This document shows, one piece after another, positions 25,194-39,360 of a stretch of 64,000 bases of DNA. The DNA lies in the NCBI GenBank assembly GCA_964448355.1, contig CAYUWC010000002.1, positions 1,995 to 65,994 on the forward strand, written 5' to 3'. The stretch comes from an uncultured Oscillospiraceae bacterium. GTDB lineage: Bacteria > Bacillota > Clostridia > Oscillospirales > UBA644. Below the pieces are notes generated by a model. It did not search any database, was not told the DNA's origin, and saw only the letters and a program-made list of their open reading frames with translations. The translations under genes and the position numbers were made by a program. How positions within the stretch are numbered: the stretch's first letter is position 1; each line of letters opens with the position of its first letter.

Positions 25194-26300
25194 ATGATAA
25201 CGGTTTCCGGCTTAACGAAGCGATACGGCAGCAAGATAGCGGTCAACAATGTCAGCTTCACGATCAATCAAGGCGAGATCGTCGGTCTTCTCGGCCCGAA
25301 CGGTGCGGGAAAGACAACGACGATGAACATGATAACGGGATACATATCTTCTCACGCGGGTAAAGTATCCATAAACGGGCACGATCTTCTTGAAGAACCG
25401 TCAAAAGCAAAGGAGTGCTTCGGATATCTTCCGGAGATCCCCCCTCTTTACCATGATATGACGGTTCGGGAATATCTCAGTTTTGTTTACAATCTTAAGG
25501 GTTGCAGCAAAAAAGAGAATATAAAGAAGAAAAAGGAGCATATCGCCGAGGTTTGCGAAGTTGTTAAGATCACGGGCGTATATAACAGGCTGATAAAAAA
25601 CCTTTCAAAAGGTTACAAACAGCGTGTCGGCCTTGCACAGGCGCTTATCGGGGACCCTCCGATCCTTATTCTCGACGAGCCTACCGCCGGTCTTGACCCC
25701 AAGGAGATCGTTGAGATACGAAATCTTATAAAACGTCTCGGAACGAGGCGAACGATAATCCTGTCCTCGCACATTCTTTCGGAGGTACAGGCTGTTTGCG
25801 AGCGTATAATAATAATGAACGAAGGCTTTGTCGTTATGGACGCGCTTGCCGATGATCTTACGATGCGTATGGGTGCAAACAGCAGATACGGCGTTCGTCT
25901 TGCGGCTCCGGAGGACGCGGATGTTATCGGGGTTCTCGGCTCTCTGCCCGGAATCGCAAAGATCGAATATATCGGCTCGTTTGAGCAGGGCACGTTCGAT
26001 TTTATAATCGAAGCCGAGAAGAAAACGGATATCCGCCGTATACTTTTCGACGAATGCGCAAAGAGAAACTGGTATATTTTGATGATAACACCTCTCGGTA
26101 TGTCGCTTGAAGACATCTTCCTGCAGCTTGTTTCTCAAAATGACGAGCAAAGGGCGCTTGCCGACAAAAAAGACGACAAGAAAAAGAAGAAAGATACAGA
26201 TAAAGAGGATATGACGGAAGCTCAAACAGAGCAAACCGATCCCGAAAACAATGATACGGAAGAACAAAAGGAGGAAGCAAACGATGACGGCAATAATTAA
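25194..26300 (+). CDS. ABC transporter ATP-binding protein (GldA-like, ABC-2 subfamily) with an acidic/lysine-rich C-terminal tail
   Basis: Walker A GPNGAGKTT, signature LSKGYKQRV and Walker B ILILDEPTAGLD are present. The last ~60 aa are low-complexity K/D/E-rich. Confidence 0.9.
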   Translation: MITVSGLTKRYGSKIAVNNVSFTINQGEIVGLLGPNGAGKTTTMNMITGYISSHAGKVSINGHDLLEEPSKAKECFGYLPEIPPLYHDMTVREYLSFVYNLKGCSKKENIKKKKEHIAEVCEVVKITGVYNRLIKNLSKGYKQRVGLAQALIGDPPILILDEPTAGLDPKEIVEIRNLIKRLGTRRTIILSSHILSEVQAVCERIIIMNEGFVVMDALADDLTMRMGANSRYGVRLAAPEDADVIGVLGSLPGIAKIEYIGSFEQGTFDFIIEAEKKTDIRRILFDECAKRNWYILMITPLGMSLEDIFLQLVSQNDEQRALADKKDDKKKKKDTDKEDMTEAQTEQTDPENNDTEEQKEEANDDGNN

Positions 26301-26988
26301 ACGAGAGCTTATCTCATTTTTCAAAAACCCGATCGGTTGGTTTGTTCTTGCGATATATTCTTTCCTTTCGGCGATACTGTTCACTCTTTTTGTTATTTGG
26401 CAAAACACGAGCTATCTCGGAGACTACTTCGGGTTCTGGCTGTTTTTTGTTGACATGGTAGTTGTCGGCATACTTTCGATGCGCTTTTTCAGCGAAGAAA
26501 AGAAAAACAAGACCGACCAATTGTTGTTAACATCGCCGATAAATCTTTATCAGCTCGTTTTGGGTAAATTTTTCGGCGCACTTATAATCTTTTTGATCTG
26601 CACGTCCGTAAACTTGTTTTACGTGCTTGTCGTAGACATTTTCGGAACGGTCGATTACGGTTGTCTTGCGACGAATCTTATCGGCACGGTACTTGCGCTT
26701 TGTGCGATAATCTCGATAGGTCTTTTCGTTTCCGCACTGACGGAGAGCGCCGTTGCGGCTGCGGCAGGTACGATGGCGATACTGTTTTTCATGTTCGTTG
26801 TCGACTTTTTCGCAATGTTCTTCCCGACGTGGCTTGCAAATATTTTAATGTACACAAATATTTATGCGCAATTCGATGATTTTACAAACGGTATTCTTAA
26901 TCTGCCCCCGATCGTTTATTATATCTCCGTAACGGTAATATTCTTGTTCCTTACGGTAAGAATGATAGAAAAACGCCGTTGGAACTAA
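26284..26988 (+). CDS. ABC-2-type transporter permease (GldF-like)
   Basis: MTAIIKRELISFFKNPIGWFVLAIY is the typical N-terminus, and the protein has about six TM helices. I prefer the ATG at 26284; the track ORF starts at 26251. Confidence 0.75.
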   Translation: MTAIIKRELISFFKNPIGWFVLAIYSFLSAILFTLFVIWQNTSYLGDYFGFWLFFVDMVVVGILSMRFFSEEKKNKTDQLLLTSPINLYQLVLGKFFGALIIFLICTSVNLFYVLVVDIFGTVDYGCLATNLIGTVLALCAIISIGLFVSALTESAVAAAAGTMAILFFMFVVDFFAMFFPTWLANILMYTNIYAQFDDFTNGILNLPPIVYYISVTVIFLFLTVRMIEKRRWN

Positions 26989-27001
26989 GGAGGTGCAAGA
27001 G

Positions 27002-28711
27002 ATGTCTAACGAAAATATTAACGAAAACGTAAATGCCGAAGCAAACGAGAGCATTAACGAAAACTCAACCGTTGAATCAAACGAACACATTGACGAAACC
27101 GTAACCGTTCAAGCGGAAGAAGTAACGAAAGTCGAACAGCCCGAGCAAGGTCCTGTCGCCGCTCTCGGCGGAAACGTATCGGATCAAAAAATACCGAGGA
27201 TAAACAAAAACAAGCTTAAATTCGGTTCTCTTGCGACCGTTTATACGATTCTTTTTATCGCGATTGTCATTGCGGTAAACGTTGTTATAAATCTTGCGGC
27301 GGACAGATTTACGTTAAAAGTGGACCTGACGTCCGAGCAGGTGTTCACTCTCGATCAGGAAACGCTCGATTTTCTTGCCGAGCTTGATTCGCCTGTTGAA
27401 ATAATCATTCTCGGCGATGAGCAAACGTATCGCTCCGCTACTTCAACATCGGGCGCTATTGCGCCGACGAGGTATGTTGTTGAAACGGTCGATAATTATA
27501 TAAGAGAGAGCGAAAATGTGACGGTACACTTTGTTGACCCGAGATATAATCCCAACTTTTTCAAGACGAGAAACATCACTCTCGACGACGGTACGGACAC
27601 GGCGGACAACATTTTTCTTGTTGTTTACTCGCCCGAAACGCAGAGATATCGTTTTATAAAAGACACTATATTCGACAATCTTATGTATGTCGGTCTCGAA
27701 AGACGTCTGACAGCGGGAATGTTGTACGTTACGGTCGAAGATATCCAAACGATAGCGATCGTAAAAGGTCACGGTGAGGAAACGTTGCCGTACTTCCAGG
27801 AAACGCTCAAAGACAACGGTTTTGATGTTAAATACATCACGATCCAGGAATTTGACGAGATCCCGGACTTTGTTTCGATCCTCGTTATCAACAATCCGAC
27901 AAGATCGTACAGCGACGACGATATCAACAAGATCGACGCATGGCTGTCAAACGACGAAGAGCTTGGGCACCATCTGATGGTCTTTGCAGATCTTGATATG
28001 CCGAAGAATCAAAAGCTTGAGGATTATCTTGCGGAGTGGGGGCTGTCGCTCGGTACGGAAAACGTATTCGACTACAACAACAGCTATGCCTTTACGAACG
28101 CATCGTATCCGCTTTTGAAAGTTACGTATGCCGATGATGCGACAACGCTTGCGGAAGATCTTGCGCGTGAGGGTTATTATCAGTTTGTTCAGCTCGGCAC
28201 GGCAAGAGCCGTCAACCGTCTTTACGAAAGCAAAGACAATCGAACGACATACAGCGTAATCGAAACTTTCGATACCGCATTTTCAAGATATACGGCGTCC
28301 ACAACGCTTGCTCCCTCCGATTGGAAAAACTTCAAAAAAGAAGATACCGACACTGTAGGTCCGTTCGATCTGAGTGCGATCTCCCGTCAGGTGCGCTACG
28401 AGGGAATGACGGAATTTTCGTCGAGCGTGTACCTTTGCGGCTCGACATCTTTTGTTGACGATTATTTTATCAGCAATATTGACGGTAACAACCAACAAAC
28501 TGCGGAATTTATGATAAAGCTGTCTAAATTCCTTGTTGCATCAAAACAATCTTACGATACGAATATTTTGCCCACGCAGCTGATCTTCGACACACTTGCG
28601 TTTACGACAACGACGGAATTTATAATTGTTGTATTCTGCCTTTTGATCGGCATTCCCGCGCTCTTGGCGATAACGGGTATAGTAGTGTGGAGAAAGCGTA
28701 AATTCTTATGA
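27002..28711 (+). CDS. GldG-like ABC-transporter auxiliary protein (large extracytoplasmic domain between N- and C-terminal TM helices)
   Basis: Its position after the GldA/GldF-like pair, an N-terminal TM (LATVYTILFIAIVIAVNVV) and a C-terminal TM (IIVVFCLLIGIPALLAITGIVVW) support the call. AAGGAGG lies 8 nt upstream of the ATG at 27002. Confidence 0.6.
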   Translation: MSNENINENVNAEANESINENSTVESNEHIDETVTVQAEEVTKVEQPEQGPVAALGGNVSDQKIPRINKNKLKFGSLATVYTILFIAIVIAVNVVINLAADRFTLKVDLTSEQVFTLDQETLDFLAELDSPVEIIILGDEQTYRSATSTSGAIAPTRYVVETVDNYIRESENVTVHFVDPRYNPNFFKTRNITLDDGTDTADNIFLVVYSPETQRYRFIKDTIFDNLMYVGLERRLTAGMLYVTVEDIQTIAIVKGHGEETLPYFQETLKDNGFDVKYITIQEFDEIPDFVSILVINNPTRSYSDDDINKIDAWLSNDEELGHHLMVFADLDMPKNQKLEDYLAEWGLSLGTENVFDYNNSYAFTNASYPLLKVTYADDATTLAEDLAREGYYQFVQLGTARAVNRLYESKDNRTTYSVIETFDTAFSRYTASTTLAPSDWKNFKKEDTDTVGPFDLSAISRQVRYEGMTEFSSSVYLCGSTSFVDDYFISNIDGNNQQTAEFMIKLSKFLVASKQSYDTNILPTQLIFDTLAFTTTTEFIIVVFCLLIGIPALLAITGIVVWRKRKFL

Positions 28712-30213
28712 CGAAAAAAAGGATCATCGGTATCGTTATCGCAATTGCGATCATCGGTCTGCTTATCGGCGCTGTGTTTTTCATGTTAACGTTCGACACT
28801 CTTCCCGAAGAAGAGGAGCCGTCCTCGGACCTGTCGATAGAATATGCGCGTCAAAGCTTGGTGCTGTACTCCTGCGTTATCGAAGATTTAAAGGCTATAC
28901 ACGTTAAAAATCCGACCGGCGAATATACCGTCAGCAAAGATGAAGACGGAAACATCAACTTCCTCGGCAGAGAGGGTGCACCGCTGTTGCCGTATTCGTC
29001 GGAGGGCCTTTATTCAAGCGTTGCGAAAGTAACGTGTGAAGCGTTGATCGAAGCGGAGACCGAGCATCTTGAGTATTATGGGCTTGACGAGCCGCAGGTC
29101 GTTATACAAATAGAGATGAAAGACGGAACCGTTACGGAGCTGCAGATAGGCGACGCCGCACCTAAGGGCGGCGGCTATTATATAAGAAACGCTTCCAACA
29201 CGGACGTATTTCTTGCGCAGACGTATTTCTCGGAACGTTTTCTGAAGAATCACGTACAGTATTATCAAACATCCATAAGCAAAGAGTTTGATTATACGGG
29301 ATTTGAATCCCTTTCGATCGAATATTCCGAAGCTTCCGGAAAAGACGATATATATATAAGGAAGACAACCGACGAAGAAGCGACCGATCTGAACTATTCC
29401 GGCGGTATGGTAATGGAAAAACCGTTCCATTGGGGCGGAGATTCAACGCCGATACAGGGTATCGTCGAGATCCTCGCAAGTCTTGAAGCGGACGATATAA
29501 TTACCGACACGCTCGACGAAGAGCTCCAAGCGCAGTACGGTTTTGACGATCCGACAAGAGTTGTTATAGAAGCGTGGGTAGACACGCAAAACTACGTAAG
29601 TCAGCTGACAAGTCTCGAAAACCCGTACTACGGTGCAACGGAGGACGGCTCTGATTTGTTGATACAAAGCGAATATCTTCTCGGTAACATAGACGGAAGA
29701 ACGCTTTATGTTATGTACGACGGCGAGCCTGTTATATACGGCGTTGATATCGACAATTTCGCGTTTGTCGATTACGGTGTCGATACGTACTGTCAAAGAA
29801 TAATCAATCTGAGAAACATCAATGATCTGAACGGTATTATTGTTGAACTTAACGGCGAAACATATTCGTTCTCGATCGAAAATCCCGATGCGGGCGACGA
29901 TATGGTCGTTATGTGGGACGGAACGACGAAGATCGATCCGGATCTGTTCAGAAGTTTCTACGTTTCCATTATCAGTGTTACGCACGACGGGCTTGCGTAC
30001 GAACCGGAGGAGGGGCTTGAACCCGATCTGAAAATAACGTACAAGGCTATCGACGGAACGGATACGGTGCTTGAATTTATACCGATAGAATCGAGAAAAA
30101 GTGTCCTTAAAGTTAACGGCGAGGGTAGATTCTTCGTGTATGTAAATAAAGAAAACAAAATAAAAAATGATCTGACAAAGCTTATAAACGGCGAAGAGAT
30201 CAAAAACTACTGA
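28708..30213 (+). CDS. DUF4340-like single-pass membrane protein associated with GldG-type ABC systems
   Basis: 501 aa with an N-terminal TM and a large extracytoplasmic region. The call rests on the recurrent four-gene neighbourhood and has not been verified by HMM. Confidence 0.5.
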   Translation: MTKKRIIGIVIAIAIIGLLIGAVFFMLTFDTLPEEEEPSSDLSIEYARQSLVLYSCVIEDLKAIHVKNPTGEYTVSKDEDGNINFLGREGAPLLPYSSEGLYSSVAKVTCEALIEAETEHLEYYGLDEPQVVIQIEMKDGTVTELQIGDAAPKGGGYYIRNASNTDVFLAQTYFSERFLKNHVQYYQTSISKEFDYTGFESLSIEYSEASGKDDIYIRKTTDEEATDLNYSGGMVMEKPFHWGGDSTPIQGIVEILASLEADDIITDTLDEELQAQYGFDDPTRVVIEAWVDTQNYVSQLTSLENPYYGATEDGSDLLIQSEYLLGNIDGRTLYVMYDGEPVIYGVDIDNFAFVDYGVDTYCQRIINLRNINDLNGIIVELNGETYSFSIENPDAGDDMVVMWDGTTKIDPDLFRSFYVSIISVTHDGLAYEPEEGLEPDLKITYKAIDGTDTVLEFIPIESRKSVLKVNGEGRFFVYVNKENKIKNDLTKLINGEEIKNY

Positions 30214-30241: not shown

Positions 30242-31999
30242 ATGAAAATCGAGAATATTGACGAAATGAAGGTTTTTTGGCATACCTCATCTCACATTCT
30301 TGCACAGGCAGTCAAACGTCTGTATCCGAATGTTAAACTCACGATCGGTCCGGCGATAGAAAACGGTTTCTATTACGATTTTGACAGCGATGTTTCGTTC
30401 ACTCCGGAGATCCTCATAAAGATCGAAGCGGAGATGAAAAAGATCGTTAAAGAAAATCTCAAGGTCGAACGCTTTGTTCTTCCGCGTGAAGAAGCTCTCG
30501 AACTTATGAAGGACGAACCGTATAAGATCGAGCTTATCAACGAGCTTCCCGAAGACGAAGAAATAAGCTTTTACAAGCAGGGTGAATTTGTCGATCTTTG
30601 CGCAGGCCCGCACTTGCCGTACGCAAGTAAGGTTAAGGCTTTTAAGTTAACAAGCTGCACCGGTGCGTACTGGAGAGGCGATTCCAACAAGAAAATGCTT
30701 CAAAGAATATACGGAATATCTTTCCCCAACGCAACGCTGCTCGACCAGTATCTTACAGACGTTGAAGAGGCTAAAAAGAGGGATCATAACAAGCTCGGCA
30801 GAGAGCTTGAGCTGTTCACGACGTGCGATCTTATCGGTCAAGGTCTTCCCATACTTTTGCCCAAAGGCGCAAGGATAATCCAAACGCTTCAGCGTTTTGT
30901 CGAAGACGAAGAGCAAAAACGCGGTTGGCTTTTAACAAAGACCCCCTACATGGCAAAAAGCGATCTTTACAAGCTTTCCGGCCACTGGGATCATTATCAG
31001 GACGGTATGTTTGTTCTCGGCGACGAAACAAAGGACGACGAAGTCTTTGCTCTCCGCCCGATGACCTGCCCGTTCCAATATCAGGCATATCTTAACAGAG
31101 CGCGTTCTTACCGCGATCTTCCGCTTCGTTATAACGAGACTTCCACGTTGTTTAGAAACGAAGCGTCAGGCGAAATGCACGGCCTTATAAGAGTTCGTCA
31201 GTTCACCATTTCCGAAGGTCATCTGATGTGCTTGCCCGAACAGTTGGAAGAGGAGTTTAAAAACTGTCTCGAACTCGCCATTTATATGTTAAAAACACTC
31301 GGTCTTTACGAAGATGTTTCATATCGTTTCTCGCAGTGGGATCCCAACGACAGAGAAAAATACATCGGCACGCCCGAACAGTGGGACGAAGCTCAAAGTG
31401 TTATGCAAAAGATCCTCGATCATCTCGAGATTCCGTACAAGATCGGCATAGGCGAAGCTGCATTCTACGGACCCAAGCTCGATATCCAGATCAGAAACGT
31501 TTTCGGCAAGGAAGATACGCTGATCACTATCCAGATCGACCAAATGCTCGCCGAAAAATTCGGTATGGAATATGTCGATCGTGACGGAACGAAGAAAAAT
31601 CCGTACATCATTCACAGAACTTCTATCGGCTGCTATGAAAGAACGCTCGCTCTCCTTATCGAGAAGTATGCCGGCGCGTTCCCGACTTGGCTCGCGCCCG
31701 TTCAGGTCAAGATCCTCCCGATCGCCGACAGACATCAACCGTATACGTTTGAACTCAAAAAAGAACTCGAAAAATACGGCTTGCGCGTCGAAGTTGACGA
31801 CAGAAGCGAAAAGATAGGCTACAAGATCCGTGAAGCTCAAATGGAAAAAGTTCCTTTCATGCTCGTCGCAGGCGACAAAGAGCAGGAAGAAGGCACAGTC
31901 TCCGTCAGAGCAAGAAAAGAGGGCGACAAAGGCTCCATGCCCGTGTCCGACTTCATCGCACTTATCAAAGAGCATATCGACAATAAGATGATAGACTGA
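30242..31999 (+). CDS. thrS: threonine--tRNA ligase (short form starting in the editing domain)
   Basis: 585 aa. FWHTSSHILAQA marks the editing domain, RPMTCPFQ, FRNEASGEMHGLIRVRQF and the class II core are present, and an anticodon-binding C-terminus follows. No TGS-domain-length N-terminus is present. Confidence 0.93.
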   Translation: MKIENIDEMKVFWHTSSHILAQAVKRLYPNVKLTIGPAIENGFYYDFDSDVSFTPEILIKIEAEMKKIVKENLKVERFVLPREEALELMKDEPYKIELINELPEDEEISFYKQGEFVDLCAGPHLPYASKVKAFKLTSCTGAYWRGDSNKKMLQRIYGISFPNATLLDQYLTDVEEAKKRDHNKLGRELELFTTCDLIGQGLPILLPKGARIIQTLQRFVEDEEQKRGWLLTKTPYMAKSDLYKLSGHWDHYQDGMFVLGDETKDDEVFALRPMTCPFQYQAYLNRARSYRDLPLRYNETSTLFRNEASGEMHGLIRVRQFTISEGHLMCLPEQLEEEFKNCLELAIYMLKTLGLYEDVSYRFSQWDPNDREKYIGTPEQWDEAQSVMQKILDHLEIPYKIGIGEAAFYGPKLDIQIRNVFGKEDTLITIQIDQMLAEKFGMEYVDRDGTKKNPYIIHRTSIGCYERTLALLIEKYAGAFPTWLAPVQVKILPIADRHQPYTFELKKELEKYGLRVEVDDRSEKIGYKIREAQMEKVPFMLVAGDKEQEEGTVSVRARKEGDKGSMPVSDFIALIKEHIDNKMID

Positions 32000-32026
32000 T
32001 AAAATTCATTTTTTTGTTTAACAAAG

Positions 32027-32097
32027 ATCCACAGTACGCAAAGTATACCCCAAAGGCAAACACTTTCGGGAGTATACAACGGCTGTGGATTTTTTTT
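32027..32097 (+). terminator. rho-independent terminator after thrS
   Basis: ATCCACAG (32027-32034) pairs with CTGTGGAT (32083-32090), with further inner pairing (gtatacccc/gggagtatac). Seven T residues follow. Confidence 0.7.
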
Positions 32098-32201
32098 GTC
32101 TTTGTTTTTACAACCGAAAATATCAATGTAATTTAACACCATTTCGTCAAATCTACCAATAACTCGTATTTTAAAAACAGCATTTTTGTTAAACTTGAGT
32201 A

Positions 32202-32230
32202 TTGACTTTTTTTTCACGACATGATATAAT
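32202..32230 (+). promoter_or_regulatory. near-consensus sigma-A promoter of the small-protein/permease cassette
   Basis: TTGACT (32202-32207), then 17 nt, then TATAAT (32225-32230). AAGGAGG lies 8 nt before the S1 ATG. Confidence 0.65.
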
Positions 32231-32260
32231 TAAAATATCAAACATAAGGAGGCATTTTTC

Positions 32261-32629
32261 ATGAAGAAAAATATAATTTTTACAGTGGTCCTTTTGACAT
32301 TGGTCATCTCTGTTTTTGCCGTAACATCGGTTCAGGTGTTGGGCTTAACAGATGCGCTCACCATAACCGTGTATACCAATTCGGGATATATTGCAGATGA
32401 TCCGGATGAAATACCGCTATACTTTGCCGAGACGGAAACATCCGGAGCAATGCCCCCGACAACGCACTATGCATATGCATACATATATAAAGACGGTGTA
32501 CAAGTCGGCTATGATCAAGGGCGTTTAAACGCCACATCTTCGCATGCATATGCGACATATCAACCGGCAATGCCGAATGAGAATTTCACTACAGACCATG
32601 GATATATAGTTTTTAATGAATTACAGTGA
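32261..32629 (+). CDS. small secreted protein S1 (unassigned family; paralog of S2 and S3)
   Basis: 122 aa. It has a Sec-type signal peptide (MKKNIIFTVVLLTLVISVFAVTSVQ), a strong RBS, and shares the C-terminal motif AYATYQPAMPNENFTTDHGY with S2 and S3. Confidence 0.8.
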   Translation: MKKNIIFTVVLLTLVISVFAVTSVQVLGLTDALTITVYTNSGYIADDPDEIPLYFAETETSGAMPPTTHYAYAYIYKDGVQVGYDQGRLNATSSHAYATYQPAMPNENFTTDHGYIVFNELQ

Positions 32630-32639
32630 TTGAAAAATC

Positions 32640-32690
32640 GGAGATAAAGAAGGCAAACCCGTTCGCCTTCTTTATCTCCTGCGTTTTTTT
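32640..32690 (+). terminator. intercistronic rho-independent terminator/attenuator between S1 and P1
   Basis: A perfect 15-bp stem, GGAGATAAAGAAGGC (32640-32654) with GCCTTCTTTATCTCC (32665-32679), has a 10-nt loop and is followed by tgcgTTTTTTT. Confidence 0.75.
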
Positions 32691-32705
32691 AGGGAGAATT
32701 TGCGT

Positions 32706-34229
32706 ATGATCTTTACGGTTTATTTGAGGGAAGCATGGAAAAATATAACGAAAAAACCGTTGCTTTCAACTCTTACAATTTTATTTTTAACGTTTACCGT
32801 CCTTTTTTTCTGTGTTTTTGTTAGAATTTCGGATATAAAAACCATAACGACCGACAATTTCCAAAAATCGGAAGCATATATTCAATATAAGCAATATAAT
32901 CTGACTACCACTATAAAAGGCAATACTATCGGATCGCTTAATGCAACCGATCCCTTTACATATATGTACCCTCCCGATGAAGATGAAGTAGAACTCAGAG
33001 CTAATACTCTTGCATACTTTGATGAATTCAGCGATTTTTTTGACACTCTTTTCACTTTGGATTCCGAAGATATAAAAGTTGTTTACATGGGTTGGGGACA
33101 AACAACACTTATCGAAAACTACAAAGGCGCAAAGGATTTGGAAGAATCCTACAACAAAAAATATCGAAGAGAAGAGATTTCCGATTATAAAAAACAAGGT
33201 ATAGACACCACATTTCTCGAAACTGGCGCTTATGTACACACGATATACGTGGGCAAAAGCTTTTTTGAATATGAAAAGCTTAATTTTGCACAAGGCGGAG
33301 TGCCGACGGAAGAAGATCTCGAATATAAGTTTATTGCGGACGAAGAGACCCCCGTATTGGAAATCCCGGTAATTGTCGGTTCCGCATTTGGCGAAGATTA
33401 TGAAGTCGGTGATATTTTAAGCCCTGTAAATGATCCGTATATGGGTCCCCTTGAATCGCAGTGGAAATATTTTCCTGTAAATTATCGTCAAGAATATTGT
33501 GCCCGATATAGGATAGTCGGTATTTTAAGTGCGGACAACGCCATAAGTAACAGCCTCGGCTCAACTATTTCCGACTTTTCGAAATACATAATTGCTCCTT
33601 ACCATTTTTTAACTGACCCTGCATTTACCGAAAAATATACGGATAATCAAAAGATAGTTCTGTTAGACGACCTGATCAAAGATATAACAAAAGTAAAACT
33701 TTATATAAACAGAGAAAAAGAAGCTGAATGCGTTTCGATTTTATGGGATATGATCGATAATTCTTCTCTTAAAGATTATCTGAAGCCGCACACGTTTGAC
33801 GTTCTTAACGAGATATCGATAACAATCGCGAACGCAAGGGATACTTCTTACAAAGTGCTCGCAATAGCTATCGCGGTATTCTGTTCTATCGGTGTTTTTA
33901 TAATGATATTAAACAATCAAAAAGACAACATCCGAGATTACAGTGTACATATGATATCGGGCGCAAGCAAGGCGGATATACTTTTGACAGGTGTTGTTGA
34001 AACATTGATATATGTGCTGATCGCAGATATATTGATGCAATATCCGAGGATATACATGATGTTCGGCTGGCAACAGAATTCTCCGCTCGGAACATGGATG
34101 GGAATGTGGAGCGGAATGATCCCTATCGTTATAATAGAAAATCTTGTTATTATCCTCATTGCGTTTATTTGTAACTACATTTCGGTTTCGAAGATCAGTT
34201 TTTCCGAAGTTCTGAAAAGAAAGGATTAA
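32706..34229 (+). CDS. FtsX/MacB-type permease P1 (four TM helices, large extracytoplasmic domain); no cognate ATPase adjacent
   Basis: It has an N-terminal LREAWKNITKKPLLSTLTILFLTF TM and a ~340-aa extracytoplasmic region. The C-terminal three-TM block carries HMISGASKADIL, an FtsX-domain-like helix. GGGAG lies 9 nt upstream of the ATG at 32706; the track ORF starts at the TTG at 32700. Confidence 0.75.
   Translation: MIFTVYLREAWKNITKKPLLSTLTILFLTFTVLFFCVFVRISDIKTITTDNFQKSEAYIQYKQYNLTTTIKGNTIGSLNATDPFTYMYPPDEDEVELRANTLAYFDEFSDFFDTLFTLDSEDIKVVYMGWGQTTLIENYKGAKDLEESYNKKYRREEISDYKKQGIDTTFLETGAYVHTIYVGKSFFEYEKLNFAQGGVPTEEDLEYKFIADEETPVLEIPVIVGSAFGEDYEVGDILSPVNDPYMGPLESQWKYFPVNYRQEYCARYRIVGILSADNAISNSLGSTISDFSKYIIAPYHFLTDPAFTEKYTDNQKIVLLDDLIKDITKVKLYINREKEAECVSILWDMIDNSSLKDYLKPHTFDVLNEISITIANARDTSYKVLAIAIAVFCSIGVFIMILNNQKDNIRDYSVHMISGASKADILLTGVVETLIYVLIADILMQYPRIYMMFGWQQNSPLGTWMGMWSGMIPIVIIENLVIILIAFICNYISVSKISFSEVLKRKD
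32728..32818. repeat. 91-bp tract identical to 35291-35381 (5' ends of P1 and P2)
   Basis: Base-by-base comparison by eye found no differences. The offset is 2,563 bp. Confidence 0.85.
33726..34120. repeat. 395-bp tract identical to 36289-36683 (TM2-TM4 region of P1 and P2)
   Basis: Base-by-base comparison by eye found no differences. The track's spurious antisense ORFs 33898-34095 and 36461-36658 have identical translations. The offset is 2,563 bp. Confidence 0.9.
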
Positions 34230-34459
34230 AAGATGAAAGCCCTTTTGTGATTGTCTCCCCCCGAACGTTCATACCTATACCCGCTCTTGTTTTCGTCAAT
34301 TCGACCGATATATAAACAAAAATCGGCGGTTTTGCTGAACATTGGCAGAAGAACTCGTCTAGTTATAACGAAATCGCAAACCAATTTATTCTTTTTCAAG
34401 TAGATTCAACAATCATATCATCACATAATTTCCAATCCAAAAGGAGGTGAAAAATCACA

Positions 34460-34795
34460 ATGAAAAGAAAGATTTACGCATTTGCACTTTTAGCAATCGT
34501 TATCTCCGTCGCAGTAGCTTTTTCTGTTCAATCTTTTGCAGATCTTGCACACCGGGTTATACTTGAGACTTACAATGGATATATTTACACAAGTATACCG
34601 AAATATTACGCAGAAACAAAATCAAATTCATACGGGAACATTGAACACAGAGCTGTTGCAAAGATTTTTTTGGATGATGTACTCGTTGCAACAGATATCG
34701 GAGAAAAAGATTACACATCCTACGCATATGCAACATACCAACCGGCAATGCCCAATGATAATTTTACTACATGGCATAGTTATATTTTAGGATAA
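34460..34795 (+). CDS. small secreted protein S2 (paralog of S1 and S3)
   Basis: 111 aa. It has the signal peptide MKRKIYAFALLAIVISVAVAFSVQSFA, the RBS AAAGGAGGTG, and the motif AYATYQPAMPNDNFTTWHSY. Confidence 0.8.
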   Translation: MKRKIYAFALLAIVISVAVAFSVQSFADLAHRVILETYNGYIYTSIPKYYAETKSNSYGNIEHRAVAKIFLDDVLVATDIGEKDYTSYAYATYQPAMPNDNFTTWHSYILG

Positions 34796-34812
34796 AAAGG
34801 AGAAGATGATTC

Positions 34813-35172
34813 ATGAAAAAAAATATTATTTTTTCAGTATTTCTTTTAACTCTAATCATTTCGATCTTTTCTTGCACTGCGATACAAATGATCGGATGGG
34901 ATGATGATGAACGGATAGTTGTAACTTCAGATTACGGATATCTACCGACAGATATACCATCATATTTCGCCCGAACAACAACAGCCTCAGCTCCTCCCAT
35001 CAAACATTACGCTATTGCGGTTATTTACAAAGGTGACATAACAGAAGTAGTTGCGTCAAATTATGGTCGAACAGGAACTGCTTCTAGTGCATACGCATCA
35101 TGGCAACCGGCAATGCCCGGAGAAGGTTATTTTACCGAACATGGATATAGAATAACCGAAATTCTCGACTAA
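34813..35172 (+). CDS. small secreted protein (possible lipoprotein) S3 (paralog of S1 and S2)
   Basis: 119 aa. Its signal peptide MKKNIIFSVFLLTLIISIFSC is nearly identical to that of S1 but ends in a Cys. The motif is AYASWQPAMPGEGYFTEHGY, and the gene is 17 nt downstream of S2. Confidence 0.8.
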   Translation: MKKNIIFSVFLLTLIISIFSCTAIQMIGWDDDERIVVTSDYGYLPTDIPSYFARTTTASAPPIKHYAIAVIYKGDITEVVASNYGRTGTASSAYASWQPAMPGEGYFTEHGYRITEILD

Positions 35173-35183
35173 GTAAAAGTAAA

Positions 35184-35219
35184 CATAAAGAAGAAGACAA
35201 TCCTGTCTTCTTCTTTATG
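35184..35219 (+). promoter_or_regulatory. intercistronic perfect 16-bp stem-loop between S3 and P2 (no U-tract)
   Basis: CATAAAGAAGAAGACA (35184-35199), loop ATCC, then TGTCTTCTTCTTTATG (35204-35219). It shares the ATAAAGAAG core with the S1-P1 terminator. Confidence 0.6.
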
Positions 35220-35268
35220 GAGAATAACGTTCCGATGCTTTATAATTTAACAGAAGGAGATGTTCCAT

Positions 35269-36792
35269 ATGCTATTTGCGGTCTATTTAAGGGAAGCATG
35301 GAAAAATATAACGAAAAAACCGTTGCTTTCAACTCTTACAATTTTATTTTTAACGTTTACCGTCCTTTTTTTCTGTGTTTTCGCAAGGATATCTACGATC
35401 AAAACTATAACCGAAGACAATCTTCAAAAATCGGAAGCATATATTCAATATAAGCAATATAGTTTTAATACAGATACAAAGGGAGTTGGAGTTGGAAGTT
35501 ATAATTCTACCGACGATAAGTTTACATATTTGTACCCTCCCGATGAAGATGAAGTAGAAATCAGAACTGAAGCTCTCGGCTACTTTGACGAACTAAGTGA
35601 TTTTTTCGATACAATTTTCACCTTGGATTCCGAAGATATAAAAGTCGTTTATATGAGTGGCGAATGGACGACTCTTATCGTCAATTCAAAAGGTGCAAAG
35701 AATTTGGAAGAAACTTACAACAAGAATTTTCGAAAAGAAGATATCTCAGAATATAAAAAACAAGGTATAGACACCACATTCCTTGAAACCGGCGCTTATG
35801 TGAAAACTATATTCGTAAGCCAAAGCTTTTTTGACCACGAAAAGCTTAATTTTGCAAAAGGCGGGGTTCCGACAGAAGAAGATCTTAATTATAAATTTAT
35901 CTCGGACGAAGAAACCCCTGTAATTGAAATACCGGTAATTGTCGGTTCCGCATTTGCCGAAGATTATGAGGTCGGGGATATTATAGAACGTGCATATGAG
36001 CCTTATGAATCTCCTGAAACAGATTGGCAAAGATACTCGAGCGATTACCATCAGCAGATGTTTTGCAAATACAGGATAGTCGGTATTTTAAGTGAAGACA
36101 ATGCCATAACCAACTGTTACGGCTCAAGTATTTCAAACCTATCGAAGAATATAATCGTTCCTTACCATTTTTTAACCGACCCTGCATTTACCGAAAAATA
36201 TACGGATAATCAAAAGATAGTTAGAGTAGACGATCTATTCTGGGAAATAACGCAAGTAAAACTTTATATAAACAGAGAAAAAGAAGCGGAATGCGTTTCG
36301 ATTTTATGGGATATGATCGATAATTCTTCTCTTAAAGATTATCTGAAGCCGCACACGTTTGACGTTCTTAACGAGATATCGATAACAATCGCGAACGCAA
36401 GGGATACTTCTTACAAAGTGCTCGCAATAGCTATCGCGGTATTCTGTTCTATCGGTGTTTTTATAATGATATTAAACAATCAAAAAGACAACATCCGAGA
36501 TTACAGTGTACATATGATATCGGGCGCAAGCAAGGCGGATATACTTTTGACAGGTGTTGTTGAAACATTGATATATGTGCTGATCGCAGATATATTGATG
36601 CAATATCCGAGGATATACATGATGTTCGGCTGGCAACAGAATTCTCCGCTCGGAACATGGATGGGAATGTGGAGCGGAATGATTCCGATCGTTATAGCTG
36701 AAAACCTCATTATAATTTTAATAGCGTTCATTTGCAATTACATTTCGGTTTCAAAAATCAGTTTTTCCGAAGTTTTAAAGAGGAAGGATTAA
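35269..36792 (+). CDS. FtsX/MacB-type permease P2 (paralog of P1)
   Basis: It has the same length and layout as P1, with identical N-terminal TM and TM2-TM4 segments and a diverged extracytoplasmic domain. AAGGAG lies 9-10 nt upstream of the ATG at 35269; the track ORF starts at 35260. Confidence 0.75.
   Translation: MLFAVYLREAWKNITKKPLLSTLTILFLTFTVLFFCVFARISTIKTITEDNLQKSEAYIQYKQYSFNTDTKGVGVGSYNSTDDKFTYLYPPDEDEVEIRTEALGYFDELSDFFDTIFTLDSEDIKVVYMSGEWTTLIVNSKGAKNLEETYNKNFRKEDISEYKKQGIDTTFLETGAYVKTIFVSQSFFDHEKLNFAKGGVPTEEDLNYKFISDEETPVIEIPVIVGSAFAEDYEVGDIIERAYEPYESPETDWQRYSSDYHQQMFCKYRIVGILSEDNAITNCYGSSISNLSKNIIVPYHFLTDPAFTEKYTDNQKIVRVDDLFWEITQVKLYINREKEAECVSILWDMIDNSSLKDYLKPHTFDVLNEISITIANARDTSYKVLAIAIAVFCSIGVFIMILNNQKDNIRDYSVHMISGASKADILLTGVVETLIYVLIADILMQYPRIYMMFGWQQNSPLGTWMGMWSGMIPIVIAENLIIILIAFICNYISVSKISFSEVLKRKD
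35291..35381. repeat. 91-bp tract identical to 32728-32818
   Basis: See the partner entry at 32728-32818. Confidence 0.85.
36289..36683. repeat. 395-bp tract identical to 33726-34120
   Basis: See the partner entry at 33726-34120. Confidence 0.9.
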
Positions 36793-36795
36793 GCG

Positions 36796-37950
36796 ATGAA
36801 GAAGTATTTAAATTTCACAAATTTTTTAATCGTATTAAGTATTGCGATAATGACGGTATTTCTTATCGTTATTGTCAATCAGGAATTGATAAACAGCAGA
36901 AACGAGCGTGAGTTCAACAACTTTTACGGCGGAAACAGCCGAAGAATAAGTATCGATTCCGACGCAAGAAAATTTTCTTTTGACGTAACGGGGCTTTCGG
37001 AGAATTACGTTATATACGGATTGTTAAGCAATTCGAGTGAAAAGAACTATTTGGCGGATTCCGTAAGGACTGTTTACGGCGAAGGTAATTTCCCGATACC
37101 GACAATAAAGGCAGGCAGATTTTTTACTGCTGAAGAGCTTTTGTCGGAAGAGGCGTTATGTGTTGTGGGCCAAACGACGTTCAATCGTTCTGCGTATACA
37201 AAAGACGAGGCTGCGCCGACGGAAGCCGTTGCAACAGATAGCGAGACGGAATATATCGAAGACGAAGAGATCGAAGAAAAGGTTTTTGACGAAACAAAAG
37301 AATATTACTATTTGCACAGCGGTATCGAGTACAAGATCATCGGTGTGTTCGGAATGAACAAAACGAGTGATATCGACACGATAACAATGCTCAATTTTGG
37401 CGGATACATTGCAAGCAAGGGTTCGTCGTACAAATTGACGTATCATATTGATTCGTTTAACACCGAAGAGATCGACACTGTATTTACGGCACTCGGCGAA
37501 AGGGTAGTTGAGGCCGAAGGAGAGTGGAGAGAGATATTGTATTCGTCGCCGTTAAAGTCGATCGACGTATATTACACGTATATTTATCTGCTCGGCTGTA
37601 TAATATTGATACTTAATCTTTTGATAGTATCGTTCAGATATGCGGCGAAGAACGAATATCGTATGTGCATCAAAAAGATGCTCGGCGTGACGTCTTTCCG
37701 CTTGGCTGCGGAGACTTGCGGCTCGTTTGCGTGCATATCTTTTATAGGCATGGGCATAGGAATATGGATCTTTTCGATGTTATCGAAAACGCAATTTTTC
37801 GAAAGCAGCGGCCTTGATTATTTTGCCGGTTTGACGTGGCAGACGATACTGTTTACGGCTGTGATCGTTTATGCGGTATCGCTTTCGATATCCGTTTTCC
37901 CGCTCATTCGTATATACAAATTAGATACAAGTGCTCAAATACGAGGATAG
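36796..37950 (+). CDS. FtsX/MacB-type permease P3 (shorter and divergent)
   Basis: 384 aa with an N-terminal TM. Its extracytoplasmic domain has MacB-like strings IKAGRFFTAEELLSEEALCVVGQ and YKIIGVFG, plus an acidic insert. The C-terminal three-TM block carries KKMLGVTSFRL. It starts 4 nt after the P2 stop. Confidence 0.7.
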   Translation: MKKYLNFTNFLIVLSIAIMTVFLIVIVNQELINSRNEREFNNFYGGNSRRISIDSDARKFSFDVTGLSENYVIYGLLSNSSEKNYLADSVRTVYGEGNFPIPTIKAGRFFTAEELLSEEALCVVGQTTFNRSAYTKDEAAPTEAVATDSETEYIEDEEIEEKVFDETKEYYYLHSGIEYKIIGVFGMNKTSDIDTITMLNFGGYIASKGSSYKLTYHIDSFNTEEIDTVFTALGERVVEAEGEWREILYSSPLKSIDVYYTYIYLLGCIILILNLLIVSFRYAAKNEYRMCIKKMLGVTSFRLAAETCGSFACISFIGMGIGIWIFSMLSKTQFFESSGLDYFAGLTWQTILFTAVIVYAVSLSISVFPLIRIYKLDTSAQIRG

Positions 37951-38004
37951 AAAAATCGCTTTTTTGTTAAAAACGCCGAAAAAGCCGGTGTAAAAAAAAT
38001 TTGC

Positions 38005-38033: not shown

Positions 38034-38076
38034 AATGTTAAAACATACCATAAAGCGATAAGGAGCTTATTTGATT

Positions 38077-39360
38077 ATGATGCAGGAATGGTTTAAAGAG
38101 GCGAAACTCGGCATATTCATTCATTACGGAATATACAGCTGCGGCAATTGGTCGGAATCGTGGTCTTTCCACAACGGTCATGTTCCGTACGACAGATACA
38201 TGGCACAGTGCAACGAATTTACGGCAAGCAAATACGATCCCGAAAAGTGGGCTGAGCTGTTCAAAAAAGCAGGCGCGAACTATGTTGTTATGACAACAAA
38301 GCATCACGACGGTGTTGCGTTGTTCGACACAAAATACAGCGATTTGAGTGTTGTTAAAAAAACGCCGGCAGGCCGCGACCTTGTAGCACCGTATGTTAAA
38401 GCGGTAAGAGATGCGGGAATGCACGTCGGACTTTACTACTCGCTCATCGATTGGTCGGACTTACGTTACAGAAGCGTATATCCCGACGGACAAAGTCCCG
38501 AAAACTACAATAAAAACGACATATACGGCTGCCCGATGGGTGGACCGGAAGATCCCGAAAAGTGGGAAGAATTTCTCAAGTTTAACGACGATCAGATGCG
38601 TGAGATCCTCACAAATTACGGAACTGTCGATCTTATCTGGTTCGACGGAGACTGGGAGCGTTCCGCAAAGCAGTGGAGAGCAGACAAAGTACGCGAATTT
38701 TTGCACAACATCAACCCGAACATTGTTATAAATTCGAGATTGCAGGGTTACGGCGACTATGACACACCCGAACAGGGTGCGCCGATCATTGCGCCGACAC
38801 GTCCGTGGGAATTCTGCACGACCATCAACGACAGCTGGGGCTACAGAAAGTTCGATAACGATTACAAGACATCGAGAATGGTCATAAGAATGTTCTGCGA
38901 TTGTTTAACAATGGGCGGAAACATGCTTTTGGACGTAGGCCCGAAAGAAGACGGAACGATCGATCCGCGCCAAGAGCAGATACTTCTCGATCTCGGCTCG
39001 TGGATCAGCGACAACAAAGAAGCTGTTTACGGTACCGAAAGAGGTATAAACTACAGATATTTCCTCGGCGGAAGCACTGTTTCCAAAGATAAGAAGAATC
39101 TTTATCTTATTTGTTACGACAAGCCCGATGAGCATATTTGTCTTAAGGGATTGTTAAGCCCCGTAAAGCGTGTATCCGTTCTTCACTCGAACGAGACGCT
39201 TCAATACCGTTACACGGGCATGGGCTTTAACAACGGAACGCTTTGGATCAACATCGCAAAAGATCAGCTGCACCGTTACGCAACGGTCATCAAGATCGAG
39301 CTTGAAGAGGAGCTTAAGCTCAGCGGAAGCGCCGGTCAGGTCGTAACCAACAACGACTAA
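38077..39360 (+). CDS. alpha-L-fucosidase (GH29 family)
   Basis: WFKEAKLGIFIHYGIYS, TTKHHDGVALFDT, LIWFDGDWE and a C-terminal beta domain are present. AGGAG lies upstream. The start is ATG at 38077 or TTG at 38071. Confidence 0.85.
   Translation: MMQEWFKEAKLGIFIHYGIYSCGNWSESWSFHNGHVPYDRYMAQCNEFTASKYDPEKWAELFKKAGANYVVMTTKHHDGVALFDTKYSDLSVVKKTPAGRDLVAPYVKAVRDAGMHVGLYYSLIDWSDLRYRSVYPDGQSPENYNKNDIYGCPMGGPEDPEKWEEFLKFNDDQMREILTNYGTVDLIWFDGDWERSAKQWRADKVREFLHNINPNIVINSRLQGYGDYDTPEQGAPIIAPTRPWEFCTTINDSWGYRKFDNDYKTSRMVIRMFCDCLTMGGNMLLDVGPKEDGTIDPRQEQILLDLGSWISDNKEAVYGTERGINYRYFLGGSTVSKDKKNLYLICYDKPDEHICLKGLLSPVKRVSVLHSNETLQYRYTGMGFNNGTLWINIAKDQLHRYATVIKIELEEELKLSGSAGQVVTNND

Follow-up and report, generated by a model that had tools for sequence, protein, structure and literature searches.

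The locus analysed here lies in a stretch of DNA of 64,000 nucleotides from an uncultured Oscillospiraceae bacterium (the window, 64 kb in all) and consists of six same-strand genes, which together form an island; with its two neighbours the order is thrS, S1, P1, S2, S3, P2, P3, fucosidase. P1 and P2 are paralogous genes for FtsX-like permeases, S1, S2 and S3 encode small proteins, and P3 encodes a further permease. Our investigations indicate, with a probability of about 0.8, that an S-P module was duplicated long ago and that the bodies of the two P genes have since been repeatedly homogenised by intrachromosomal gene conversion. The synonymous divergence between P1 and P2 goes from almost zero in a 395-bp tract to saturation in the adjoining 3' tail, which bears out the original prediction for this DNA in its central point, namely conversion or recombination and not uniform decay after duplication. 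The genes concerned are the following (TM, transmembrane segment; aa, amino acids).

thrS, 30242-31999: left neighbour of the island
S1, 32261-32629, + strand: 122 aa, signal-peptide-like N-terminal helix and small beta-sandwich; paralogue of S3 (51% aa identity) and S2 (46%)
P1, 32706-34229, + strand: 1,524 nt, 507 aa; 4-TM FtsX-like permease paralogue
S2, 34460-34795, + strand: 111 aa; paralogous to S1 and S3; orthologous (59% aa identity) to the first small gene of metagenome contig L003
S3, 34813-35172, + strand: 119 aa; paralogous to S1 and S2; orthologous (57% aa identity) to the second small gene of L003
P2, 35269-36792, + strand: 1,524 nt, 507 aa; paralogue of P1 (82% aa identity); by position the orthologue of the single P in metagenome contigs L001 and L003
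P3, 36796-37950, + strand: 384 aa; single-copy FtsX/MacB-like permease, always adjoining P
alpha-L-fucosidase gene, 38071-39360: right neighbour of the island

P1 and P2 are both full-length open reading frames with ribosome-binding sites, each 3' of its own small gene(s) and promoter region, and there is no third P copy in the 64-kb window. According to hydropathy, both proteins are laid out as TM1 (aa 19-41), an external domain of ~340 aa, and then TM2 (384-402), TM3 (425-443) and TM4 (471-498).

Identical tracts within diverged genes

The two P genes were compared in a MAFFT alignment of 32230-34240 against 34796-36800, with sliding identity. The equal length and constant offset that had been reported for them were confirmed: both have 507 codons and the offset is 2,563 at both gene ends, with a shift to 2,566 mid-gene that is due to two compensating 3-nt indels, such indels between the tracts having also been described beforehand. 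The idea that the whole 2,563-bp module had been duplicated (S1-P1 against S3-P2) is borne out at the DNA level in its P part; S1 and S3 are only 51% identical as proteins and their similarity was not detected by blastn, which finds module homology confined to 32693-34237 against 35256-36800 (85.1%). The alignment divides P1 and P2 into these parts.

Conversion tract A, copy 1, 32727-32818, + strand: exact match to 35290-35381 over 92 bp; codes for the cytoplasmic N-terminus and the greater part of TM1
Conversion tract A, copy 2, 35290-35381, + strand
Hypervariable external loop, 33420-33515, + strand: P1 aa 239-270; 34% aa identity to P2, with an indel; P1-P2 divergence equals that to the outgroup
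Third short tract, 33615-33659, + strand: 45 bp identical to 36178-36222
Diverged patch, 33660-33690, + strand: 31 nt, LLDDLIKDITK against RVDDLFWEITQ; breaks the near-identical block 33615-34120
Conversion tract B, copy 1, 33726-34120, + strand: 395 bp identical to 36289-36683; aa 341-472
Conversion tract B, copy 2, 36289-36683, + strand
P1 3' tail (TM4 and C-terminus), 34121-34229, + strand: 80% nt and 94% aa identity to the P2 tail, with saturated synonymous sites (proportion of synonymous differences, pS, 0.745)
P2 3' tail (TM4 and C-terminus), 36684-36792, + strand: silent sites diverged from the P1 tail

Tract B appears in the alignment exactly as first given, and tract A is an identical run as claimed, of 92 bp from 32727 and not 91 bp from 32728. 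Tract B encodes the membrane-proximal end of the external domain (~43 aa), followed by TM2, the cytoplasmic RDYSVHMISGASK loop, TM3 and the loop after it; the conserved cytoplasmic loop NNQKDNIRDYSVHMISGASK is thus encoded within it, between TM2 and TM3. It had been thought to reach from TM2 to TM4, which was wrong, as hydropathy puts TM4 in the diverged tail and leaves the tract with TM2 and TM3. The description of homogenised membrane parts and a diverging external domain is therefore a rough fit: TM4 falls in the part that is most diverged, and the near-identical block takes in ~80 external-domain residues. Sharp boundaries had been proposed as well. The 3' edge of tract B is indeed abrupt, and the downstream difference IIENLV / IAENLI is present, whereas the 5' edge is stepped, from a single-nucleotide polymorphism (SNP) at 33725 through 34 identical bases and the 31-nt patch to the 45 identical bases of the third tract. 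The SNP is the mismatch gaagcTgaatg / gaagcGgaatg noticed at the outset, seen at 33725 / 36288, where P1 has AGCTG and P2 AGCGG. The latter is the Chi pentamer of Bacillus subtilis, and for a 5-mer its presence at 36288 is probably a coincidence.

The tandem array in an independent assembly

As an independent check we used the Logan k=31 assembly of run SRR10277277, whose contigs contain the exact S1, S2/S3 and P3 proteins; a literature search for the run accession came back empty. Three of these contigs match the window.

L009, 31072-32756: 100% match; ends 30 nt into tract A copy 1
L010, 34091-35319: 100% match; starts 30 nt before the end of tract B copy 1 and stops 30 nt into tract A copy 2
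L091, 36654 onwards: 100% match; starts 30 nt before the end of tract B copy 2

A de Bruijn graph breaks k-1 nt into an exact repeat, and all the breaks at this locus fall exactly k-1 = 30 nt inside a tract. L010 alone joins the P1 tail, the region upstream of S2, S2 itself, S3 and the P2 head; because it carries both a P tail and a P head, two P genes in tandem are required. On the question of an assembly artefact, which had been raised from the start, this independent assembly supports the tandem structure: the array is real, and P1 and P2 are true paralogues 2.56 kb apart.

Layers of synonymous divergence

A codon alignment was made of P1, P2 and the two orthologues from L001 and L003, and P1 was compared with P2 by the Nei-Gojobori method. 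Synonymous divergence (dS) is 0.012 in tract B (1/82 synonymous sites), 0.17 in the first 40 codons (the 5' end, encoding the N-terminus) and 0.71 in the external domain, where its ratio to nonsynonymous divergence (dN/dS) is ~0.26. In the last 35 codons pS reaches 0.745 (saturated), with a dN of only 0.05 and 94% protein identity. The tail differs from the external domain in synonymous divergence (Fisher P = 0.014), and the pair S1-S3 is saturated as well (pS 0.77). Protein identity is 94-100% on both sides of the boundary between tract B and the 3' tail, despite the synonymous jump at this point; the boundaries of the layers (zero, low, intermediate, saturated) do not track protein constraint. 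Because the external domain, with its dS of 0.71, is far younger than the saturated S genes and tail, we infer that conversion has hit nearly the whole P body, in layers.

Chance is excluded as the source of the identical tracts. In a Sawyer-type permutation of the 643 polymorphic columns of the four sequences, the longest run in which P1 equals P2 is 118 sites, against a mean of 13.2 and a maximum of 33 for the longest run in 20,000 permutations (analytic P ~8e-21). With tract B masked, the 5' tract (32 sites) was reached in 0/50,000 permutations and the third, 45-bp tract in 34/50,000. Within tract B the L001/L003 orthologues differ from P1/P2 at 30% of nucleotides and in 47-48% of same-amino-acid codons; selection at the nucleotide level cannot explain the identity, because the orthologous tract is free to change at silent sites. 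A relative-rate test of P1 against P2 with the outgroup gave 71 and 57 unique changes (P = 0.25). The possibility that one P copy is decaying or neofunctionalising faster was rejected on this test, which shows no asymmetry.

Related loci and the history of the module

The family is very small. A search of 5.8 billion protein clusters returned for P only P1, P2 and one 59%-identical protein, and a further search with a 15-sequence family alignment gave the same three proteins only; the S profile matched five proteins, of which this window contributes three. No related loci were found with the P alignment among genome and metagenome contigs, an exact 26-nt conserved pattern had no matches in metagenome and viral contigs, and these searches yielded no further two-copy loci or same-species strains. 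None of 80 representatives of related species (Oscillospirales-type gut Clostridia) has S, P or P3 downstream of thrS, including the one with the best ThrS match (92% identical, L011), from which the island is absent.

Gene order is thrS-P-P3-fucosidase in L001 and L002 and thrS-S-S-P-P3 in L003 and L004. The window is colinear with L003 over 34459-37946, hence the two have S2-S3-P2-P3 in common, and the additional S-P module of the window is S1-P1. The S tree pairs S2 with the first of the two small L003 genes at 100% bootstrap; the second (Sb) falls into one clade with S1 and S3 (94%), inside which the three form a trichotomy (S1+S3 49%, S3+Sb 41% bootstrap). The P tail gives a comparable picture: nucleotide identity is 80% for P1-P2, 72% for P1-outgroup and 74% for P2-outgroup, with similar synonymous-codon differences and no clear preference (~23 synonymous sites). 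The external domain is 79% identical between P1 and P2 versus 59% to the outgroup, and the P body strongly groups P1 with P2. This contrast is suggestive of a duplication older than the similarity of the P bodies would imply. On the most economical view, the module was duplicated long ago, roughly at the split from the L001/L003 lineage.

Some further observations concern the same loci. Between the window and the L001/L003 lineage, P3 has a dS of ~2.6 against ~0.75-0.8 for the C-terminus of thrS, so the island diverges faster. Identity between L001 and L003 is ~97% in P and P3 but falls to only ~70% in the initial ~80 nt of P (L001 453-530, L003 1254-1335); L001 is without both S genes, its thrS being followed directly by a promoter and P. 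Since L001/L003 identity drops over those first ~80 nt, there is a recombination breakpoint in the TM1-coding stretch, which is a conversion tract in the window, and the sequences hint that this 5' stretch may be a recurrent breakpoint. Within the S genes, S1 32546-32607 and S2 34724-34785 share a 62-nt stretch that is 84% identical in genes that are ~50% identical overall; it encodes AYATYQPAMPN-NFTT-H-YI, only 4 of its 17 same-amino-acid codons differ, and either a small conversion tract or strong conservation of a motif may account for it.

Alternative explanations

The same pattern could have been produced in the assembly, by joining strain alleles in tandem or collapsing repeats to one consensus. 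The locus comes from one sample (SRR10277277) and one NCBI contig, the 395-bp repeat is longer than typical reads, and de Bruijn assemblers pop bubbles and can erase rare SNPs between near-identical copies. We nevertheless regard an artefact as very unlikely, given that L010 demands two tandem P genes on one k=31 contig, that the breaks at exactly 30 nt show exact repeat ends, and that the graph permits one path type (thrS-S1 to repeat A, two middles to repeat B, two exits) in which only the external domains are swappable; a few hidden SNPs in the interior of a tract would still leave the contrast with the saturated tail. It is also improbable that the module was duplicated recently and that its diverged parts (S1, external-domain segments, tail) were imported afterwards from other strains by homologous recombination. 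The island does look foreign in composition (GC content 0.37 vs 0.47) and is absent from the 80 related species, and recombination between alleles occurs here, as L001 and L003 differ by the replaced 5' ~80 nt of P and by S-gene presence. Imports, however, would have to be at least four in number, of at least two divergence classes and all into one copy, in a family of which only ~5 close members are known from 5.8 billion protein clusters, and the rate asymmetry between P1 and P2 expected from a foreign patchwork is not seen (P = 0.25).

Purifying selection at the nucleotide level, through an embedded DNA or RNA element (internal promoter, small RNA or binding site) that forbids silent change, is hardly credible. 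Promoter-like hexamers do lie within the tract, at 34005-34033 and 36568-36596, but the region has 17 promoter-like sites against a shuffled expectation of 22.8, the silent freedom of the L001/L003 tract (30% of nucleotides, 47-48% of same-amino-acid codons) speaks against such an element, and 395 bp of absolute constraint would be unprecedented for one. Nor do we give more than a slight chance to programmed cassette switching, in which the conserved tracts would serve as arms for a regulated exchange of external domains, as in antigenic variation. In both copies a variable external domain does lie between identical direct arms, of 92 bp and 395 bp, and the hypervariable loop is the most diverged part; yet both copies are complete open reading frames with ribosome-binding sites, small genes and promoter regions of their own, there are two copies only with no silent or truncated cassettes, the island holds S, P and P3 genes only, without recombinase, invertase or reverse transcriptase, and PADLOC and PHROGs gave no matches. 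A diversity-generating retroelement or invertase acting on the hypervariable loop was rejected, as no reverse transcriptase or recombinase gene lies in or beside the island.

Several points weigh against repeated gene conversion after an old duplication, or limit what can be made of it. The dS estimate for the tail is based on ~23 synonymous sites, and the trichotomy in the S tree is no proof that the duplication preceded the lineage split. The two long repeats leave one phasing ambiguity, namely which external domain belongs to which copy, and bubble-popping in short-read assembly could have made a near-identical tract perfectly identical. The two-copy locus is present in only one genome and one run, and donor, recipient and timing cannot be fixed from strains. 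Finally, the rationale of a shared interface with P3 and an ATPase, presented below, is based on the structures of MacB/FtsX, as the model of P (pLDDT, the predicted local distance difference test score, of 33) cannot be used.

A possible course of gene conversion

If gene conversion after an old duplication is the right explanation, homologous recombination of the RecA type between the direct copies would repeatedly overwrite parts of one P gene with the sequence of the other, with no crossover, through exchange between sister chromosomes or in the repair of forks or breaks. Older events would have reset most of the external domain to a dS of ~0.7, and both perfect tracts would stem from the latest ones, the 92-bp tract covering the N-terminus and TM1 and the 395-bp tract the stalk of the external domain, TM2, the cytoplasmic loop and TM3. 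Conversion would never have reached the S genes, the hypervariable loop, the 31-nt patch or the 3'-terminal 109 bp of P. Tracts would end where local divergence blocks strand exchange or heteroduplex extension; stretches already identical would therefore favour renewed conversion. There may also be selection against events by which the loop, the patch or the S genes would lose their differences. As direct repeats, the 395-bp and 92-bp tracts should in addition drive unequal crossing-over, and with it loss or gain of modules.

In transporters of the MacB/FtsX type, TM1, TM2 and the TM2-TM3 loop form the dimer and ATPase interfaces. By analogy, we speculate that the converted parts are preserved because P1 and P2 both work with the single P3 and an unlinked ATPase. 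The pattern of conversion hints at which parts of P are interchangeable between the paralogues and which are kept distinct.

Features around the S genes

The three S proteins have lengths of 111-122 aa, a mutual identity of 36-51% and a signal-peptide-like N-terminus in each. The GC content of the S-P-P3 island is 0.36-0.40, compared with ~0.47 in the flanks (window 32000-38000). The non-coding parts of the island contain a repeated motif, a promoter and two hairpins.

20-nt motif TTTCGTCAAATCTACCAATA, 32142-32161, + strand: 5' of the S1 promoter
20-nt motif, second copy TTTCGTCAATTCGACCGATA, 34291-34310: 85% identical to TTTCGTCAAATCTACCAATA; 5' of S2
Sigma-70-like promoter before S1, 32202-32230, + strand: TTGACT, 17 nt, TATAAT, extended TG; 11/12 matches
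Hairpin between S1 and P1, 32640-32690, + strand: -26.9 kcal/mol, followed by U7; z -4.3
Hairpin between S3 and P2, 35184-35219, + strand: -22.4 kcal/mol, without U-run; z -6.2; positional counterpart of the S1-P1 hairpin

The 20-nt motif may be an operator, and as the site of a regulator it may mark two transcription units, S1-P1 and S2-S3-P2-P3. In L003, an inverted repeat that contains TTTGTC and is related to the motif lies 5' of the first S gene. The S1-P1 hairpin looks like a leaky terminator or attenuator, and the two S-P hairpins suggest an attenuated read-through by which far more S than P would be made. A hairpin is found at the same S-P position in L003, with a different sequence.

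The S-P-P3 family

P can be assigned to FtsX/MacB only in part: its topology agrees, but its Pfam scores stay below the threshold and no ATPase is encoded in cis. P1 and P2 score 17.5 bits and P3 24.8 bits with Pfam FtsX (PF02687), below the gathering cut-off of 25.5. P3 has near-threshold matches to both FtsX and MacB_PCD in Pfam and matches P in topology (four TM segments, the first two separated by a large extracytoplasmic domain); no recognisable MacB_PCD was found in the external domain of P. When 1.84 billion representatives were scanned in full with the P profile (HMMER), only 38 proteins were obtained at E <= 0.001, of which the distant ones carry FtsX and MacB_PCD domains and are linked to P only at E ~1e-4. 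In a PDB profile search with P, MacB came up only at E 0.12-0.26, and hhalign gave no significant match between the P family and P3. NCBIfam, PADLOC and PHROGs had no matches for S, P or P3, and an origin in a defence system or phage was dropped because all three were blank. An AlphaFold2 model of P1 from a three-sequence alignment was unusable (pLDDT 33). For S1 the AlphaFold2 model is a six-stranded beta-sandwich of ~90 aa (pLDDT 79.5), and the fold search with it returned generic immunoglobulin-like beta-sandwich matches only, none at E <= 0.001, with no specific relative in the PDB.

Four distant relatives (~21-25% identity) retain the order of small exported protein(s), P and P3-like protein. 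L092 encodes a small protein in which the S motifs recur and a P3-like protein with 32% identity to P3 (E 1e-51). In L097 (2237-7464) there are two very divergent P-like genes, of 488 and 461 aa (22% mutual identity), with P3-like and lipoprotein genes between them; multiplication of P modules in a single locus is therefore a recurrent event in the family. No ATP-binding cassette (ABC) ATPase lies beside P-P3 in L001, L003, L092 or L095-L097. In the 64 kb of the window, the only ABC ATPase is encoded by a GldA-like gene (25194-26300) in a separate ABC-2 operon, and it is probably unrelated to P and P3; this GldA/GldF/GldG-like operon, with a DUF4340 protein, occupies 25194-30213 directly 5' of thrS. 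P and P3 thus have the appearance of two divergent FtsX-like permeases that form an obligate pair and have an exported partner protein; their ATPase, if any, would be encoded elsewhere, and P3 is presumed to be the common partner of P1 and P2.

A glycoside hydrolase gene directly adjoins P-P3 in every locus with flanking sequence, even in the ~22%-identical relatives.

Alpha-L-fucosidase: window 38071-39360; also L001/L003
GH125: L092 8716-9981
Alpha-L-rhamnosidase: L095 3018-5285
Alpha-L-arabinofuranosidase: L097 1-1461

This adjacency may reflect a functional link to glycan use, or chance. As a doubtful but possible extension, the S-P-P3 genes might encode an uncharacterised three-gene envelope system, recurrently beside glycoside hydrolase genes, made of a secreted beta-sandwich and an FtsX-like heterodimer with no ATPase in cis, with a 'constant core / variable head': conversion would hold the core (TM1, TM2, loop) identical for the single P3 and the ATPase, and selection would keep the cognate S, the hypervariable loop and the 31-nt patch distinct. 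If this is true, two specificities would be carried on one permease chassis. Small exported protein, P and P3 form an extremely rare trio that is conserved down to ~22% identity, and what interest remains in the locus attaches to this family and not to the conversion as such.

Comparison with known systems

With MacB/FtsX (type VII) ABC permeases, such as the heterodimeric LolC/LolE, P shares its 4 TM and a large external domain between TM1 and TM2. The conserved R-D-Y-x-x-H-x-x-x-G-A-S between TM2 and TM3 resembles the cytoplasmic loop of the FtsX family, and P and P3 are two different permease genes that always adjoin. Unlike these systems, P/P3 have no FtsE-, LolD- or MacB-type ATPase in cis, their Pfam scores are below the gathering level, and the gene of a small exported protein precedes the pair. 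The last point recalls FtsEX, whose extracellular partners include PcsB, CwlO, RipC and EnvC: the FtsX-like external domain of P is co-encoded with a small exported protein that could, by analogy, be its extracellular partner, although S, unlike the partners of FtsEX, has no hydrolase, coiled-coil or LytM/CHAP domain.

Antigenic variation by cassettes is exemplified by Neisseria pilE/pilS and Borrelia vlsE. The P copies are similar to these in that conserved arms surround a variable, surface-exposed segment and recombination between copies would be non-reciprocal. They differ in that the P locus has no silent cassettes and two complete, apparently expressed copies, and in that the net effect is homogenisation and not diversification.

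The kind of event proposed here, ectopic gene conversion or concerted evolution of bacterial paralogues, is already well known, and prokaryotic concerted evolution has been surveyed (PMC6053082). The case of P1 and P2 leaves general knowledge of gene conversion unchanged. It is a clean and well-bounded instance of layered conversion, in which an outgroup rules out constraint and the assembly was checked independently; it makes the S-P locus a useful worked case and serves as a warning that short-read assemblies will break, and gene trees be distorted, at this locus. Examples of ectopic conversion are tufA/tufB in Salmonella, rRNA operons, babA/babB in H. pylori and PE/PPE in M. tuberculosis, and tracts of RecA-mediated conversion are typically tens to hundreds of bp long. 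P1 and P2 resemble these systems in residing in one genome, in having synonymous-identical tracts of typical length within diverged flanks, and in being nearer to each other than to their orthologues over the converted part. Unlike tufA/tufB and the rRNA operons, they form a close tandem (2.56 kb) of accessory membrane-protein genes and are not highly expressed housekeeping genes; and unlike the known examples of ectopic conversion, theirs is partial and layered, with the hypervariable loop, the 31-nt patch, the 3' end and the S genes left unconverted.

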